A stretch of 64,000 bases of DNA from Escherichia coli. Lineage in GTDB: Bacteria > Pseudomonadota > Gammaproteobacteria > Enterobacterales > Enterobacteriaceae. The notes under the pieces were generated by a model, which was given only the letters and a program-made list of their open reading frames with translations, did no database searches and was not told the origin of the DNA. The number at the start of each line of letters is the position of its first letter. The first letter of the stretch is position 1. A program made the translations under genes and the position numbers. Below, in pieces: positions 5,906 through 61,673 of the stretch. Location: NCBI RefSeq assembly GCF_965641715.1, contig NZ_OZ282453.1, one strand, 5' to 3'.

Positions 5906-7132
5906 ATGGGAATTAACGAAATCATCATGTACATCATGATGTTCTTTATGCTGATAGCTGCCGTAGACAGGATCCTGTCGCAGTTCGGCGGTTCTGCTCG
6001 TTTCCTCGGTAAGTTCGGTAAAAGTATCGAAGGATCAGGCGGTCAGTTCGAAGAAGGCTTTATGGCAATGGGCGCACTGGGCCTGGCGATGGTCGGTATG
6101 ACCGCGCTGGCACCGGTACTGGCTCACGTTCTCGGGCCGGTAATTATTCCGGTTTACGAAATGCTCGGCGCTAACCCATCGATGTTCGCCGGAACACTGC
6201 TGGCGTGCGATATGGGCGGCTTCTTCCTCGCCAAAGAGCTGGCGGGCGGCGACGTAGCCGCGTGGCTATACTCTGGGTTAATTCTCGGGTCGATGATGGG
6301 GCCAACGATTGTGTTTTCCATTCCGGTGGCGCTCGGCATTATCGAACCTTCTGACCGTCGTTATCTGGCGCTCGGCGTGCTGGCGGGCATTGTGACCATT
6401 CCGATTGGTTGTATCGCTGGTGGTCTGGTTGCTATGTACTCCGGTGTTCAGATCAACGGCCAGCCGGTGGAATTCACTTTCGCCCTGATCCTGATGAACA
6501 TGATCCCGGTGATCATTGTTGCGATTCTGGTGGCGCTGGGGCTGAAATTCATCCCAGAAAAAATGATCAACGGCTTCCAGATCTTCGCCAAATTCCTCGT
6601 TGCATTGATCACCCTCGGTCTTGCCGCTGCGGTAGTGAAATTCCTGCTTGGCTGGGAACTGATCCCCGGTCTGGATCCTATCTTTATGGCCCCTGGCGAT
6701 AAACCCGGTGAGGTGATGCGCGCCATTGAAGTTATCGGTTCTATCTCCTGCGTTCTGTTAGGGGCGTATCCGATGGTGCTGCTGCTGACCCGCTGGTTTG
6801 AAAAACCGCTGATGAGCGTCGGTAAAGTGCTGAATATGAACAACATCGCGGCAGCCGGCATGGTGGCAACGCTTGCCAACAACATCCCGATGTTCGGCAT
6901 GATGAAGCAGATGGATACCCGCGGCAAAGTCATCAACTGCGCCTTCGCCGTTTCCGCTGCTTTCGCCCTGGGCGACCACTTAGGCTTCGCCGCTGCCAAC
7001 ATGAATGCCATGATCTTCCCGATGATTGTCGGCAAGTTGATCGGCGGCGTAACGGCGATTGGCGTGGCGATGATGCTGGTGCCAAAAGACGACGCGACCG
7101 CGGCTAAAACCGAAGCGGAGGCACAATCGTGA
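5906..7132 (+). CDS. eutH: Ethanolamine permease EutH (408 aa)
   Basis: Polytopic membrane protein translation, expected length and position. Confidence 0.9.
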   Translation: MGINEIIMYIMMFFMLIAAVDRILSQFGGSARFLGKFGKSIEGSGGQFEEGFMAMGALGLAMVGMTALAPVLAHVLGPVIIPVYEMLGANPSMFAGTLLACDMGGFFLAKELAGGDVAAWLYSGLILGSMMGPTIVFSIPVALGIIEPSDRRYLALGVLAGIVTIPIGCIAGGLVAMYSGVQINGQPVEFTFALILMNMIPVIIVAILVALGLKFIPEKMINGFQIFAKFLVALITLGLAAAVVKFLLGWELIPGLDPIFMAPGDKPGEVMRAIEVIGSISCVLLGAYPMVLLLTRWFEKPLMSVGKVLNMNNIAAAGMVATLANNIPMFGMMKQMDTRGKVINCAFAVSAAFALGDHLGFAAANMNAMIFPMIVGKLIGGVTAIGVAMMLVPKDDATAAKTEAEAQS

Positions 7133-15993: not shown

Positions 15994-16280
15994 GTTCTCA
16001 CCTCAAAAAGTAGCGGTGAGGAAAATATGGAGAAAACCCTCACCGCGCCCTGAATGAAATTAAAGACCAACATTACTGTTGATACTTATTATTATATTCC
16101 TCCTGTCCCTGTTTCACATCTTTTACCATATAGTGAAAGGGGATATTCTGTAATGTTTACAAAACTTTTAATTAGCAAAAAATAATTGCGCATCTCACGT
16201 AATGCAGGGATAATATTACTCAAGGGCTGGTTGCCCTTACTCAAAATGTGATCTATAACTACAACGATCTATTTCACTTC

Positions 16281-25201: not shown

Positions 25202-26071
25202 TTACCGCTTTCTCGAGTGTGCTTTCTGGTTGTCAAACCAGTGGAAATAACTGATCACGCCTTCGGCAATCGCTGTGGCGATTTTCTGGCGAAACGCCGC
25301 CGTGCCTAACAGCCGCTCTTCTTCCGGGTTGGTGATAAACGAGGTTTCCACCAGCACCGACGGAACCGACGGCGATTTCAACACCACAAACGCGGCTTGT
25401 TCGGTGTTGCGGCTGTGCAGTTTATGCACCGGCTTAATCTTTTTCAGAATATGCGAGCCGAGCGTCAGGCTGTTTTTAATAGTATCGGTTTGCACCAGAT
25501 CAAACAGCACTTGCTGCAATAGGTGATCCTTGTCAGTCGCCTTTTTACCGGCAACTTCATCGGCGCGGTTTTCGCGTTCAGACAGGTATTTCGCCATTGC
25601 GCTACTTGCCCCACGGTTAGAGAGGGCAAATACCGAAGCACCGGCAGCTTTCGGGTTGGTAAAGCCATCGGCATGAATTGACATAAACAGATCTGCGCCA
25701 TGTTTATGGGCGATTTCAACGCGATCGTAAAGTGGGATAAACGTATCGCCAGAACGCGTTAAACGCGCATCAATCCCATGATTACGCAAAATGGAACGGA
25801 CGTTTTTAGCAATCGCCAGCACCACATGTTTTTCTTTCGAACCGTTGCGTCCGATCGCTCCGGTATCAATTCCGCCGTGGCCTGGATCGAGAACAACGAC
25901 ACGTTTGCCGCCAGATTTTTTGGCTTTCGGCTTGCTGTGTCCGTTGCTGGTTTTTAAAGGTTCGTCTTTGGCGATGGCTTGCGACATTCCTGACAACGTC
26001 AGGGCAGCCAAACCGGCTTTCAGCACCTGGCGGCGCGAAGTGAGTGTTTTTAGTGGTTTAAAAGTGCTCAT
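25202..26071 (-). CDS. amiA: N-acetylmuramoyl-L-alanine amidase AmiA (289 aa, Tat-type signal)
   Basis: Translation with RR-containing signal peptide and amidase_3 features. Confidence 0.9.
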   Translation of the reverse strand: MSTFKPLKTLTSRRQVLKAGLAALTLSGMSQAIAKDEPLKTSNGHSKPKAKKSGGKRVVVLDPGHGGIDTGAIGRNGSKEKHVVLAIAKNVRSILRNHGIDARLTRSGDTFIPLYDRVEIAHKHGADLFMSIHADGFTNPKAAGASVFALSNRGASSAMAKYLSERENRADEVAGKKATDKDHLLQQVLFDLVQTDTIKNSLTLGSHILKKIKPVHKLHSRNTEQAAFVVLKSPSVPSVLVETSFITNPEEERLLGTAAFRQKIATAIAEGVISYFHWFDNQKAHSRKR

Positions 26072-47105: not shown

Positions 47106-49130
<2,025 letters not shown>

Positions 49131-55307: not shown

Positions 55308-57497
55308 ATGTTTGTGGAGCATAACCTGATAAAAAATATCAAGATATTCACACTAGCGTTTACGCTCACCGTGGTACTTATTCAGCTATCCCGTTTTATT
55401 TCGCCACTTGCCATTATCCATTCCAGTTATATCTTTCTGGCGTGGATGCCACTGTGCGTAATGCTGTCAATCTTGTTTATCTTTGGCTGGCGCGGTGTCG
55501 TTCCCGTTTTATGCGGGATGTTTTGCACCAATCTGTGGAACTTTCATCTCTCTTTTTTACAGACTGCGGTCATGCTCGGCAGCCAGACATTTGTCGTGTT
55601 GTGTGCCTGCGCAATATTACGCTGGCAGCTGGGGACGCGTTGGCGTTATGGATTGACCAGCCGATATGTCTGGCAACGTCTGTTCTGGCTTGGTTTGGTG
55701 ACGCCGATCGGCATCAAATGCAGCATGTATCTTGTGGGGAGCTTCTTTGATTTCCCGCTAAAGATATCCACCTTTTTCGGCGATGCGGATGCCATTTTCA
55801 CGGTCGTGGATTTACTAAGCCTTTTCACCGCTGTTCTGATTTACAACATGCTTTTCTACTATCTCACTCGCATGATTGTAAGTCCCCACTTTGCGCAGAT
55901 ATTGTGGCGCAGGGATATCGCTCCGTCATTGGGCAAAGAGAAACGCGCATTTACCTTAAGCTGGCTGGCAGCGTTAAGCGTGCTGCTACTTCTGCTGTGC
56001 ACACCTTATGAAAACGACTTTATTGCCGGTTACCTGGTACCCGTTTTCTTCATCATCTTTACCCTCGGGGTCGGTAAGCTTCGCTATCCGTTTTTAAATC
56101 TCACCTGGGCTGTTTCAACGCTTTGCCTGCTGAATTACAACCAGAACTTTTTGCAAGGGGTGGAAACCGAATATTCGCTGGCATTTATTCTCGCGGTGCT
56201 GATTTCCTTTAGCGTTTGCCTGCTCTATATGGTGCGCATTTATCATCGCAGTGAATGGCTTAATCGCCGCTGGCATTTGCAGGCGCTGACCGATCCGTTA
56301 ACGCTCCTGCCCAACTTTCGTGCGTTGGAACAAGCGCCGGAGCAAGAGGCGGGCAAGAGTTTTTGCTGCCTGCGCATTGATAATCTTGAGTTTATGAGTC
56401 GTCATTACGGGTTGATGATGCGCGTTCACTGTATCCGATCAATTTACCGTACGCTGCTGCCATTGATGCAGGAAAACGAAAAGTTGTATCAATTGCCGGG
56501 TAGTGAACTGCTGTTAGTGCTGAGCGGGCCGGAAACGGAAGGGCGACTCCAGCATATGGTTAACATCCTGAATAGTCGGCAAATTCACTGGAACAATACC
56601 GGGCTGGATATGGGCTATGGTGCTGCCTGGGGGCGTTTTGATGGAAATCAGGAAACCTTGCAACCCTTGTTGGGGCAGTTAAGCTGGCTGGCGGAGCAAT
56701 CCTGCGCACATCATCATGTGCTGGCGCTGGATAGCAGAGAGGAGATGGTTTCCGGGCAGACCACTAAACAGGTGCTATTGCTGAATACCATTCGCACGGC
56801 GTTAGATCAGGGTGATTTGCTGCTCTACGCCCAGCCAATTCGCAACAAAGAGGGTGAAGGTTATGATGAGATCCTCGCGCGACTGAAATATGACGGCGGC
56901 ATTATGACCCCGGATAAGTTTCTGCCCCTTATTGCTCAGTTTAACCTTAGCGCGCGTTTTGATTTGCAAGTGCTGGAATCCTTGTTGAAGTGGCTGGCAA
57001 CACACCCTTGCGACAAAAAAGGCCCGCGCTTTTCAGTTAATTTAATGCCGCTCACGCTGCTGCAAAAGAATATTGCCGGGCGGATTATTCGTCTATTTAA
57101 GCGTTATCACATCTCCCCGCAGGCGGTCATTCTTGAGATCACCGAGGAGCAGGCGTTTTCTAACGCAGAAAGCAGCATGTACAACATCGAGCAGCTGCAT
57201 AAGTTTGGTTTCCGGATTGCGATTGATGACTTTGGCACCGGATATGCCAACTACGAACGGTTAAAGCGTTTGCAGGCTGATATCATCAAAATTGATGGCG
57301 TCTTTGTGAAAGATATCGTCACGAATACGCTGGATGCGATGATTGTGAGATCAATTACCGATCTGGCGAAAGCGAAGTCATTGAGTGTGGTTGCGGAGTT
57401 TGTTGAGACGCAACAGCAGCAGGCGCTATTGCATAAGCTCGGAGTGCAATATCTGCAAGGGTATTTGATTGGACGCCCGCAGCCATTAGTTGATTAA
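55308..57497 (+). CDS. yfeA: Membrane-anchored c-di-GMP phosphodiesterase YfeA (MASE1-GGDEF-like-EAL, 729 aa)
   Basis: N-terminal polytopic region, C-terminal EAL-type domain; start at ATG 55308. Confidence 0.85.
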   Translation: MFVEHNLIKNIKIFTLAFTLTVVLIQLSRFISPLAIIHSSYIFLAWMPLCVMLSILFIFGWRGVVPVLCGMFCTNLWNFHLSFLQTAVMLGSQTFVVLCACAILRWQLGTRWRYGLTSRYVWQRLFWLGLVTPIGIKCSMYLVGSFFDFPLKISTFFGDADAIFTVVDLLSLFTAVLIYNMLFYYLTRMIVSPHFAQILWRRDIAPSLGKEKRAFTLSWLAALSVLLLLLCTPYENDFIAGYLVPVFFIIFTLGVGKLRYPFLNLTWAVSTLCLLNYNQNFLQGVETEYSLAFILAVLISFSVCLLYMVRIYHRSEWLNRRWHLQALTDPLTLLPNFRALEQAPEQEAGKSFCCLRIDNLEFMSRHYGLMMRVHCIRSIYRTLLPLMQENEKLYQLPGSELLLVLSGPETEGRLQHMVNILNSRQIHWNNTGLDMGYGAAWGRFDGNQETLQPLLGQLSWLAEQSCAHHHVLALDSREEMVSGQTTKQVLLLNTIRTALDQGDLLLYAQPIRNKEGEGYDEILARLKYDGGIMTPDKFLPLIAQFNLSARFDLQVLESLLKWLATHPCDKKGPRFSVNLMPLTLLQKNIAGRIIRLFKRYHISPQAVILEITEEQAFSNAESSMYNIEQLHKFGFRIAIDDFGTGYANYERLKRLQADIIKIDGVFVKDIVTNTLDAMIVRSITDLAKAKSLSVVAEFVETQQQQALLHKLGVQYLQGYLIGRPQPLVD

Positions 57498-57525: not shown

Positions 57526-58864
57526 CATAAGCGCTAACTTAAGGGTTGTGGTATTACGCCTGATATGATTTAACGTGCCGATGAATTACTCTCACGATAA
57601 CTGGTCAGCAATTCTGGCCCATATTGGTAAGCCCGAAGAACTGGATACTTCGGCACGTAATGCCGGGGCTCTAACCCGCCGCCGCGAAATTCGTGATGCT
57701 GCAACTCTGCTACGTCTGGGGCTGGCTTACGGCCCCGGGGGGATGTCATTACGTGAAGTCACTGCATGGGCTCAGCTCCATGACGTTGCAACATTATCTG
57801 ACGTGGCTCTCCTGAAGCGGCTGCGGAATGCCGCCGACTGGTTTGGCATACTTGCCGCACAAACACTTGCTGTACGCGCCGCAGTTACGGGTTGTACAAG
57901 CGGAAAGAGATTGCGTCTTGTCGATGGAACAGCAATCAGTGCGCCCGGGGGCGGCAGCGCTGAATGGCGACTACATATGGGATATGATCCTCATACCTGT
58001 CAGTTCACTGATTTTGAGCTAACCGACAGCAGAGACGCTGAACGGCTGGACCGATTTGCGCAAACGGCAGACGAGATACGCATTGCTGACCGGGGATTCG
58101 GTTCGCGTCCCGAATGTATCCGCTCACTTGCTTTTGGAGAAGCTGATTATATCGTCCGGGTTCACTGGCGAGGATTGCGCTGGTTAACTGCAGAAGGAAT
58201 GCGCTTTGACATGATGGGTTTTCTGCGCGGGCTGGATTGCGGTAAGAACGGTGAAACCACTGTAATGATAGGCAATTCAGGTAATAAAAAAGCCGGAGCT
58301 CCCTTTCCGGCACGTCTCATTGCCGTATCACTTCCTCCCGAAAAAGCATTAATCAGTAAAACCCGACTGCTCAGCGAGAATCGTCGAAAAGGACGAGTAG
58401 TTCAGGCGGAAACGCTGGAAGCAGCGGGCCATGTGCTATTGCTAACATCATTACCGGAAGATGAATATTCAGCAGAGCAAGTGGCTGATTGTTACCGTCT
58501 GCGATGGCAAATTGAACTGGCTTTTAAGCGGCTCAAAAGTTTGCTGCACCTGGATGCTTTGCGTGCAAAGGAACCTGAACTCGCGAAAGCGTGGATATTT
58601 GCTAATCTACTCGCCGCATTTTTAATTGACGACATAATCCAGCCATCGCTGGATTTCCCCCCCAGAAGTGCCGGATCCGAAAAGAAGAACTAACTCGTTG
58701 TGGAGAATAACAAAAATGGTCATCTGGAGCTTACAGGTGGCCATTCGTGGGACAGTATCCCTGACAGCCTACAAAACGCAATTGAAGAACGCGAGGCATC
58801 GTCTTAACGAGGCACCGAGGCGTCGCATTCTTCAGATGGTTCAACCCTTAAGTTAGCGCTTATG
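57526..58864 (+). mobile_element. IS186 (IS4 family) insertion sequence, ~1339 bp
   Basis: Terminal inverted repeats CATAAGCGCTAACTTAAGGG... / ...CCCTTAAGTTAGCGCTTATG; 10-bp target duplication GGAATTATCC at 57516-57525 and 58865-58874. Confidence 0.88.
57581..58693 (+). CDS. insL: IS186 transposase InsL (370 aa)
   Basis: Translation MNYSHDNWSAILAHIGKPEELD... recognised as IS186 transposase. Confidence 0.9.
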   Translation: MNYSHDNWSAILAHIGKPEELDTSARNAGALTRRREIRDAATLLRLGLAYGPGGMSLREVTAWAQLHDVATLSDVALLKRLRNAADWFGILAAQTLAVRAAVTGCTSGKRLRLVDGTAISAPGGGSAEWRLHMGYDPHTCQFTDFELTDSRDAERLDRFAQTADEIRIADRGFGSRPECIRSLAFGEADYIVRVHWRGLRWLTAEGMRFDMMGFLRGLDCGKNGETTVMIGNSGNKKAGAPFPARLIAVSLPPEKALISKTRLLSENRRKGRVVQAETLEAAGHVLLLTSLPEDEYSAEQVADCYRLRWQIELAFKRLKSLLHLDALRAKEPELAKAWIFANLLAAFLIDDIIQPSLDFPPRSAGSEKKN

Positions 58865-58896: not shown

Positions 58897-60099
58897 TTAC
58901 AGCACCAGTGCTGCGATTGACGCAGACAGCACACTCACCAGGGTAGAGCCGTAAACCAGTTTCAGACCGAAGCGAGAAACCACGTTACCTTGCTCTTCAT
59001 TCAGGCCCTTAACTGCACCTGCGATAATCCCGATTGAAGAGAAGTTAGCGAAGGAAACCAGGAACACAGAGATGATGCCTTCAGCACGCGGAGAGAGCGT
59101 GGAAGCAATTTTCTGCAGATCCATCATCGCAACGAACTCGTTAGAAACCAGTTTGGTCGCCATGATACTGCCCACTTGCAGTGCTTCACTGGAAGGAACA
59201 CCCATCACCCATGCAATCGGATAGAAGATGTAGCCCAGGATGCCCTGGAAGGAGATGCTGTAGCCAAACCAGCCAGTCACGGTAGCAAACAGTGCGTTCA
59301 GCGCGGCGATCAGGGCGATAAAGCCGATCAGCATCGCGGCAACGATAATGGCAACTTTGAAACCTGCCAGAATGTATTCACCCAGCATTTCGAAGAAGCT
59401 CTGACCTTCGTGCAGGTTGGACATCTGAATGTTTTCTTCACTGGCATCAACACGGTAAGGGTTGATCAGCGACAGCACGATAAAGGTGCTGAACATATTC
59501 AGTACCAGTGCTGCAACGACATATTTCGGCTCCAGCATGGTCATGTATGCACCAACGATGGACATCGACACGGTGGACATCGCCGTTGCTGCCATGGTGT
59601 ACATACGGTTACGGGAGATTTTGCCAAGGATATCTTTATAGGCAATAAAGTTTTCAGACTGACCCAGAATCAGGGAGCTGACGGCGTTAAAGGATTCCAG
59701 TTTGCCCATACCGTTGACTTTGGAGAGCAGGAAACCAATTGCGCGGATAATCACCGGCAACACGCGAATGTGCTGGAGAATACCGATCAGTGCAGAGATA
59801 AAGACGATTGGGCACAGTACTTTCAGGAAGAAGAATGCCAGGCCTTGATCATTCATGCTACCAAAGACGAAGTTAGTCCCTTCGTTGGCAAATCCGAGCA
59901 GTTTTTCGAACATTTCGGAGAAGCCTTTCACGAAGCCTAAACCAACGTCGGAGTTCAGGAAGAACCACGCCAGTAACACTTCGATAACAAGCAGTTGAAT
60001 AACATAACGGATACGAATTTTTTTGCGGTCGCTGCTTACCAGCAGTGCGAGAATCGCAACAACGGCAAGTGCCAGTACAAAATGAAGGACGCGGTCCAT
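58897..60099 (-). CDS. nupC: Nucleoside:H+ symporter NupC (400 aa)
   Basis: CNT-family permease translation; start at [11 protein letters not shown]. Confidence 0.9.
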
Positions 60100-60365
60100 A
60101 TTTGCTCCAAATATGAGGCAGGTTAAATTTCCGTGCACATTCTATGTAACATGGTTAAGGAAAACGAGATCTGACACACACTATAATGACGTCCTGTGAC
60201 AAGCTTCAAAAATAGTGAGCTGTCATACATTTCTGCTATGTTGTGTATGGAAGCTGAAAGTTATGTAAATGTGCTAACATTAAACATAACCATAACATTC
60301 AAGTCATCAATCTTTTCGTAGTCATAATCCTGGTCTATCAGAGAAATCACCACAATCCATTTAAA

Positions 60366-60422
60366 TGAATTTGATAATCATTCTCGTTTGACATAGCATG
60401 AAACATAGCAAAGGCTATGTTT
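60366..60422 (+). promoter_or_regulatory. mntH control region: Fur-box-like AATGAATTTGATAATCATTCTC and MntR palindrome AAACATAGCAAAGGCTATGTTT
   Basis: Perfect 9-3-9 inverted repeat at 60401-60422; Fur-box-like 60366-60387. Confidence 0.6.
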
Positions 60423-60425
60423 TAG

Positions 60426-61673
<1,248 letters not shown>

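Follow-up and report, generated by a model that had tools for sequence, protein, structure and literature searches.

Fur-box and MntR-type motifs and a probable OxyR site at the mntH promoter of an Escherichia coli strain

The mntH locus and its two operator motifs

In the window (the whole 64-kb stretch of DNA that was analysed, from an E. coli strain that is not K-12), a manganese importer gene is preceded by two motifs that resemble the binding sites of metal-responsive repressors. The question is whether these motifs are the operators of the gene, or whether an RNA structure, a small peptide or chance might explain them as well. The gene at 60435-61673 (+) encodes a protein of 412 aa, which was identified as the NRAMP Mn2+/H+ symporter MntH by its profile match to NCBIfam NF001923 (score 622.6 bits; cutoff 430), and which shares 100% identity with the MntH of K-12. 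The gene is separated from nupC (58897-60102, minus strand) by an intergenic region of 332 bp (60103-60434). Of 5426 complete E. coli genomes, 5424 carry this stretch, with identities of 90-100%, and the window differs from MG1655 by three SNPs within it. The Shine-Dalgarno sequence of mntH, GAGG, is located at 60425-60428 (+), 6 nt before the ATG.

An IS186/IS421-type transposase ORF (57575-58693, +) is located between pdeA and nupC, as in K-12; whereas the orientation of this IS186 copy relative to nupC is opposite to that of K-12. Strain Combat11I9, which has the best-matching intergenic sequence, carries no IS at the pdeA-nupC position. Together, the opposite orientation and the empty position in Combat11I9 suggest separate insertions into one hot spot.

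The candidate MntR operator, assigned from its sequence and its conservation, is the perfect palindrome AAACATAGC-AAAG-GCTATGTTT at 60401-60422. The arms AAACATAGC (60401-60409) and GCTATGTTT (60414-60422) are separated by the spacer AAAG. The first-pass annotation had described a 9-3-9 palindrome; the perfect inverted repeat stands, but the spacer is 4 nt rather than 3 nt, so that the arrangement is 9-4-9. The literal 21-mer of that description is absent from the 64-kb window, and the sole match to the 9-3-9 pattern with up to three mismatches is an unrelated site at 25685. The palindrome had correctly been placed 12 bp before the mntH start, with the 12 nt TAGAGGCACAAG between its end and the ATG at 60435. 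It begins 1 nt past the predicted -10 element and ends 2 nt before the Shine-Dalgarno sequence. Patzer and Hantke in 2001 and Kehres in 2002 reportedly described this inverted repeat of 22 bp, with the same location between the -10 and the ribosome-binding site.

Across 100 shuffled versions of the window, the 9-4-9 pattern was not matched even with three mismatches allowed. As a general class, perfect inverted repeats whose arms reach 9 bp or more are commoner (7 in the window versus 2.15 +/- 1.8 in the shuffles), and the remaining six of these seven resemble terminators. The significance rests on the specific sequence of the palindrome, not on palindromy as such. The 7-mer ACATAGC occurs 10 times in the 64 kb, and four of these copies are inside the 332-bp intergenic region. 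Moreover, 5384 of 5426 E. coli genomes (99.2%) carry all 22 bp of the palindrome unchanged. The site at 60401-60422 shows the features that were looked for in an MntR operator: an inverted repeat of the AACATAGC-N4-GCTATGTT type, a position at the predicted promoter of a Mn-homeostasis gene, the presence of the motif at other members of the MntR regulon, and cross-species conservation amid diverging flanks.

The sequence was also inspected for a further MntR palindrome adjoining this one, an arrangement of some SitA-like promoters described below; lone half-sites were the only candidates seen here. One of them, ACATAGCA at 60391-60398, is 12 bp upstream of the left arm and overlaps the -10; it exists only with the A allele at 60391. 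Another, TGCTATGTT at 60234-60242, is about 160 bp upstream of the palindrome. The literature search found no MntR ChIP data, and the full-text search with the operator strings returned no relevant paper.

The other motif is a Fur box, which does not overlap the palindrome and is 15 nt apart from it. The 19-mer GAATTTGATAATCATTCTC at 60367-60385 (+) agrees with the consensus GATAATGATAATCATTATC at 15 of 19 positions, and the 7-1-7 core TGATAATCATTCTCG at 60372-60386 (+) agrees with TGATAATnATTATCA at 12 of 14. The Fur-box-like string reported earlier, AATGAATTTGATAATCATTCTC, does exist at 60364-60385, but the start assigned to it (60366) is 2 nt inside the string. Its reported distance of 35 bp further upstream is approximately correct, the actual start being 37 nt before the palindrome. 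Such matches exceed the number expected by chance: the 64 kb contain two 19-mers at 15/19, versus 0.15 expected, and three 7-1-7 cores at 12/14 (up to two mismatches), versus 0.18 expected. The other 15/19 match, at 47163, was dismissed as intragenic; it is within a 671-aa ORF which we take, from its N-terminus, to be DNA ligase LigA. Further 7-1-7 matches were seen at 16080-16094, in a stretch without an ORF of at least 90 aa, and at 55327-55341, near the 5' end of the pdeA ORF.

Fur occupancy in vivo has been measured in K-12, whose Fur box is identical to that of the window. A study that applied Fur ChIP-exo to nine E. coli strains reported an intergenic MG1655 peak, P75 (2510767-2510798), with mntH as its target. 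After conversion, P75 corresponds to 60365-60396 of the window, an interval into which the Fur box and the two promoter hexamers fall at least partly. The P75 coordinates were taken as old K-12 coordinates (mntH 2509490-2510728, ATG at 2510728), because in current coordinates the interval would sit inside yfeO. The same study placed mntH in the Fur core regulon, with derepression in the fur deletions of all nine strains; mntH promoter fusions also respond to Fur. In an information-theory model, Fur was predicted to bind at -56 of mntH (coordinate 2510784), in a cluster of two sites over 25 bp that scored 19.9 bits. This position is about 60379 in the window, at the centre of the ChIP-exo peak, and the cluster extends to about 60391. 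A second MG1655 peak of the ChIP-exo study, P76 (2511044-2511073), corresponds to 60090-60119, over the nupC start codon; it has no assigned target, and the sequence there is not Fur-like by eye.

The earlier statement that mntH is repressed by MntR and Fur is supported by reviews and RegulonDB curation, in which the two repressors act independently, by the position of P75 over the Fur box, by the predicted Fur cluster near 60379, and by the recurrence of the palindrome at manganese genes.

Conservation across genera and an upstream island

The palindrome core AACATAGC-N4-GCTATGTT was scanned in one genome per species (100,044 species, 298 Gb), where 16 fixed bases would be matched about 70 times by chance. 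At least 120 loci were found. Among the matches listed, 32 are enterobacterial, and all 32 of these sites are immediately upstream of a Mn importer gene: 27 precede mntH orthologues, and five precede the gene for a SitA-like Mn/Fe ABC binding protein. The non-enterobacterial matches among those listed are scattered over unrelated phyla, and were taken to be chance or repeats. For example, the core is present on nine contigs of Bacterium isolate P11BWT0bin.6 (L053-L061) and on three contigs of Saprospiraceae MAG-109 (L078-L080), where it probably belongs to a dispersed repeat that has no relation to MntR.

The five SitA-like promoters carry the core at 1729-1748 (L025), 567-586 (L043), 6409-6428 (L052), 6442-6461 (L072) and 1348-1367 (L087) of their loci; the hosts are Citrobacter, Dryocola, Enterobacter, Cedecea and E. 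coli. A Fur box was found beside the palindrome at each of the five. In MG1655, a search with up to three mismatches revealed one site at mntS/rybA and two sites upstream of mntP, with 0.02 expected per locus.

An alignment was made of 26 mntH promoters from seven genera (Escherichia, Salmonella, Citrobacter, Kluyvera, Pseudocitrobacter, Intestinirhabdus and one further Enterobacteriaceae genome). The aligned loci were chosen by the 16 core bases of the palindrome, and these 16 are conserved by construction; independent evidence of conservation comes from the upstream island, the Fur box and the remaining six positions of the palindrome. All 22 palindrome positions are identical in the 26 promoters, including the six unfixed ones (the spacer and the outer A/T pairs). 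In the Fur box, TTGATAA, ATT, T and C are invariant. The G-GG of the Shine-Dalgarno sequence is also invariant, and the predicted -10 has invariant TA at its first two positions, the rest being mostly conserved (TAGCAT, TAACAT, TAATAT, TAGCTT). The alignment is one of discrete conserved islands (CTATCAGAGnAATCA, the Fur box core, the -10, the palindrome and the Shine-Dalgarno sequence) amid divergent sequence. For example, the 8 nt that separate the -10 from the Fur box are freely variable, with a 1-nt indel.

The most upstream of these islands has the core CTATCAGAGnAATCA at 60335-60349 of the window. The core is conserved in the seven genera, and the sequence upstream of it is not. The island at 60324-60360 is probably an OxyR activator site. 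This assignment is based on conservation, position and literature, because the match to the OxyR consensus ATAGnTnnnAnCTAT-N7-ATAGnTnnnAnCTAT at 60324-60360 (13/20) is no better than chance, with 16 such matches in the window versus 11 expected. The aligned sequence of Citrobacter werkmanii scores 15/20 by hand count. The island ends 10 nt before the predicted -35 element, and the mntH promoter is described in the literature as carrying OxyR, Fur and MntR sites, with OxyR as an activator. The dual metal-responsive architecture first proposed for this region is supported in its Fur and MntR inputs, and the described architecture has OxyR as a third input.

Core promoter, proposed control and alternative readings

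The promoter scan predicted a -35 element TTGATA at 60371-60376 (+), inside the Fur box, and a -10 element TAGCAT at 60394-60399 (+), with a spacing of 17 nt. This combination has 9 of 12 matches, and is the sole plus-strand match of the promoter scan in 60050-60500. From these hexamers we infer a transcription start at about 60405-60407, within the left arm of the palindrome. In the K-12 start-site table (Kim 2012 supplement), the weak starts on the mntH strand correspond to 60249 and 60288 of the window, and no start is listed at the predicted mntH +1. We suspect that the cells were perhaps grown under conditions that repress the promoter. The Cappable-seq supplement also lists no start site for the mntH promoter region. 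The Kim 2012 table further includes a minus-strand start at 60447, in codon 5 of mntH, which is assigned to nupC with a 348-nt leader and reads back across both operators.

Based on the above, the region is very probably a sigma-70 promoter/operator of mntH that integrates iron, manganese and probably peroxide signals. This reading is supported by the motif statistics, the conservation in discrete islands, the Fur-palindrome pair at a second, unrelated Mn importer, and the agreement of ChIP-exo with the Fur box. For the steps of control, we infer an occlusion mechanism, with physical binding of MntR and OxyR at these bases. Fe2+-Fur on the Fur box, which contains the -35, would exclude RNA polymerase from the promoter under iron sufficiency. 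Mn2+-MntR, a dimer of the DtxR family, would occupy 60401-60422, from the predicted start site to the ribosome-binding site, and would, at sufficient manganese, stop either initiation or the escape of RNA polymerase from the promoter. Each metal would act on its own, since the two repressor sites do not overlap. Oxidised OxyR probably binds at 60324-60360, abutting the -35, and would activate transcription.

The palindrome might also function as RNA. When fully transcribed, it could fold into a hairpin with 11 bp (-12.4 kcal/mol, z = -5.4), closely followed by the Shine-Dalgarno sequence, and transcripts from the weak upstream starts at 60249 and 60288 would include the whole hairpin. The operator stretch might therefore have a second role, in which these long transcripts carry both the small ORF ypeD and the hairpin, and the translation of ypeD through the hairpin sets the translation of mntH. 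Such an additional role seems unlikely. If it were true, the stop allele of ypeD at 60391, which this strain shares with about 5% of E. coli, would change the output of mntH.

It is very unlikely that the palindrome is mainly a hairpin of the mntH leader, acting on translation or mRNA stability, and not a DNA operator. From the predicted start at about 60406, the transcript would retain a 4-bp stem of -2.7 kcal/mol, no better than shuffles, and the Rfam covariance models gave no match in 60050-60520 at E-values up to 1. The palindrome is invariant in the alignment, and offers no compensatory changes that could speak for RNA pairing. Moreover, the same arms are found far upstream of mntP and beside the Fur boxes of the SitA-like promoters, with five different spacers, which fits a protein-binding site.

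The small ORF itself has to be considered as the cause of the conservation. In the K-12 annotation, ypeD (b4819) encodes 29 aa; it corresponds to 60365-60454 (+) of the window. Within it are the Fur box, the promoter and the palindrome, and it reaches 20 nt into mntH. It was found by ribosome profiling, and has been reported as conserved in Salmonella and Citrobacter koseri. In the window, ypeD has a TGA at codon 9 that results from the SNP G to A at 60391; the translation is MNLIIILVWHSM... in K-12 versus MNLIIILV-stop-HSM... here, and an 18-aa remnant (60398-60454) is a hypothetical protein in RefSeq. The exact 40-mer with the stop allele is present in 289 of 5426 E. coli genomes, and the K-12 40-mer in 3711.

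Selection on YpeD, rather than on the operators, is a highly improbable explanation, even though ypeD has a K-12 annotation, ribosome-profiling evidence and reported homologues. Translation of the Fur box and of the palindrome yields exactly the conserved residues, MNLIIIL and KHSKGYV; there is essentially no variation in these stretches, even at third codon positions, whereas the YpeD segment between the operators is variable and has an indel. The reported conservation of YpeD coincides with the operators, and is therefore not evidence of peptide function. The reading frame is also poorly kept, in many of the very genomes whose operators are intact. The stop at codon 9 is found in the window, in two genomes of other Escherichia species and in one divergent genome labelled as E. 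coli, and the 289 E. coli genomes noted above carry the stop allele. ypeD is shortened to 11 aa in Kluyvera and Pseudocitrobacter, and has no start codon in two Citrobacter.

The possibility that the two motifs arose by chance in AT-rich intergenic DNA can practically be set aside: each shuffled window does hold about two generic perfect 9-bp inverted repeats, and a gene contains one other Fur-like match at 15/19, but no shuffled window holds the palindrome within three mismatches, four of the ten ACATAGC copies of the 64 kb fall within the 332-bp region, the motifs show conservation between genera and are found again at another Mn importer, and a Fur ChIP-exo peak coincides with the Fur box.

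The reading of the region as a promoter/operator of mntH agrees with what has been in textbooks since 2001-2002. The control of mntH by Fur, MntR and OxyR is already known, and nothing new is added here. The value of the analysis is one of calibration, because a real, experimentally supported regulatory site was recognised from raw sequence. In that reading, the spacer was mis-copied by one base and the third input was missed.

Comparison with known systems

The Fur box, the -35, the -10, the palindrome, the ribosome-binding site and MntH of the K-12 mntH locus are identical to those of the window. Of the three intergenic SNPs, one is the G to A change at 60391, between the Fur box and the -10, which converts TTGGCA to TTGACA. 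The A creates a third ACATAGCA half-site in addition to the ypeD stop codon, and this half-site might alter the occupancy of MntR. A new promoter created by the SNP, with TTGACA (60388-60393) as its -35, was considered and rejected; there is no usable -10 at 16-18 nt, and it did not appear in the promoter scan.

The mntH promoters of Salmonella enterica subsp. arizonae and diarizonae have the same order and spacing of the three islands, with an identical 22-bp palindrome. Their Fur box is a perfect 7-1-7 TGATAATCATTATCA; whereas that of the window has 12 of 14 matches. The mntH promoter of Salmonella enterica is also said to carry OxyR, Fur and MntR motifs, as described by Kehres et al. in 2002.

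The promoters of sitABCD (yfeABCD-type), an operon repressed by both Fur and MntR, have a Fur box and the AACATAGC-N4-GCTATGTT palindrome side by side, as at mntH. The transporter encoded at the SitA-like loci is unrelated to MntH, and the spacers of the palindrome are AAAG, TGTA, TACG, CGCA and AGTT. Unlike mntH, three of these five loci have a second palindrome, TATAGCAATTGCTATA, that abuts the first.

The sites at mntS (rybA) and mntP have the same 8-4-8 design with an ATAGC...GCTAT core, but with two to three mismatches. The site at mntS and the annotated 5' end of rybA overlap, much as the mntH site and its predicted +1 do. At mntP, for which the mntP paper gives no site coordinates, the two sites are 40 bp apart and about 360-420 bp before the ATG, a position that fits activation rather than repression. 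The yybP-ykoY manganese riboswitch also couples manganese to a Mn transporter gene of E. coli (mntP), but it is an RNA element.
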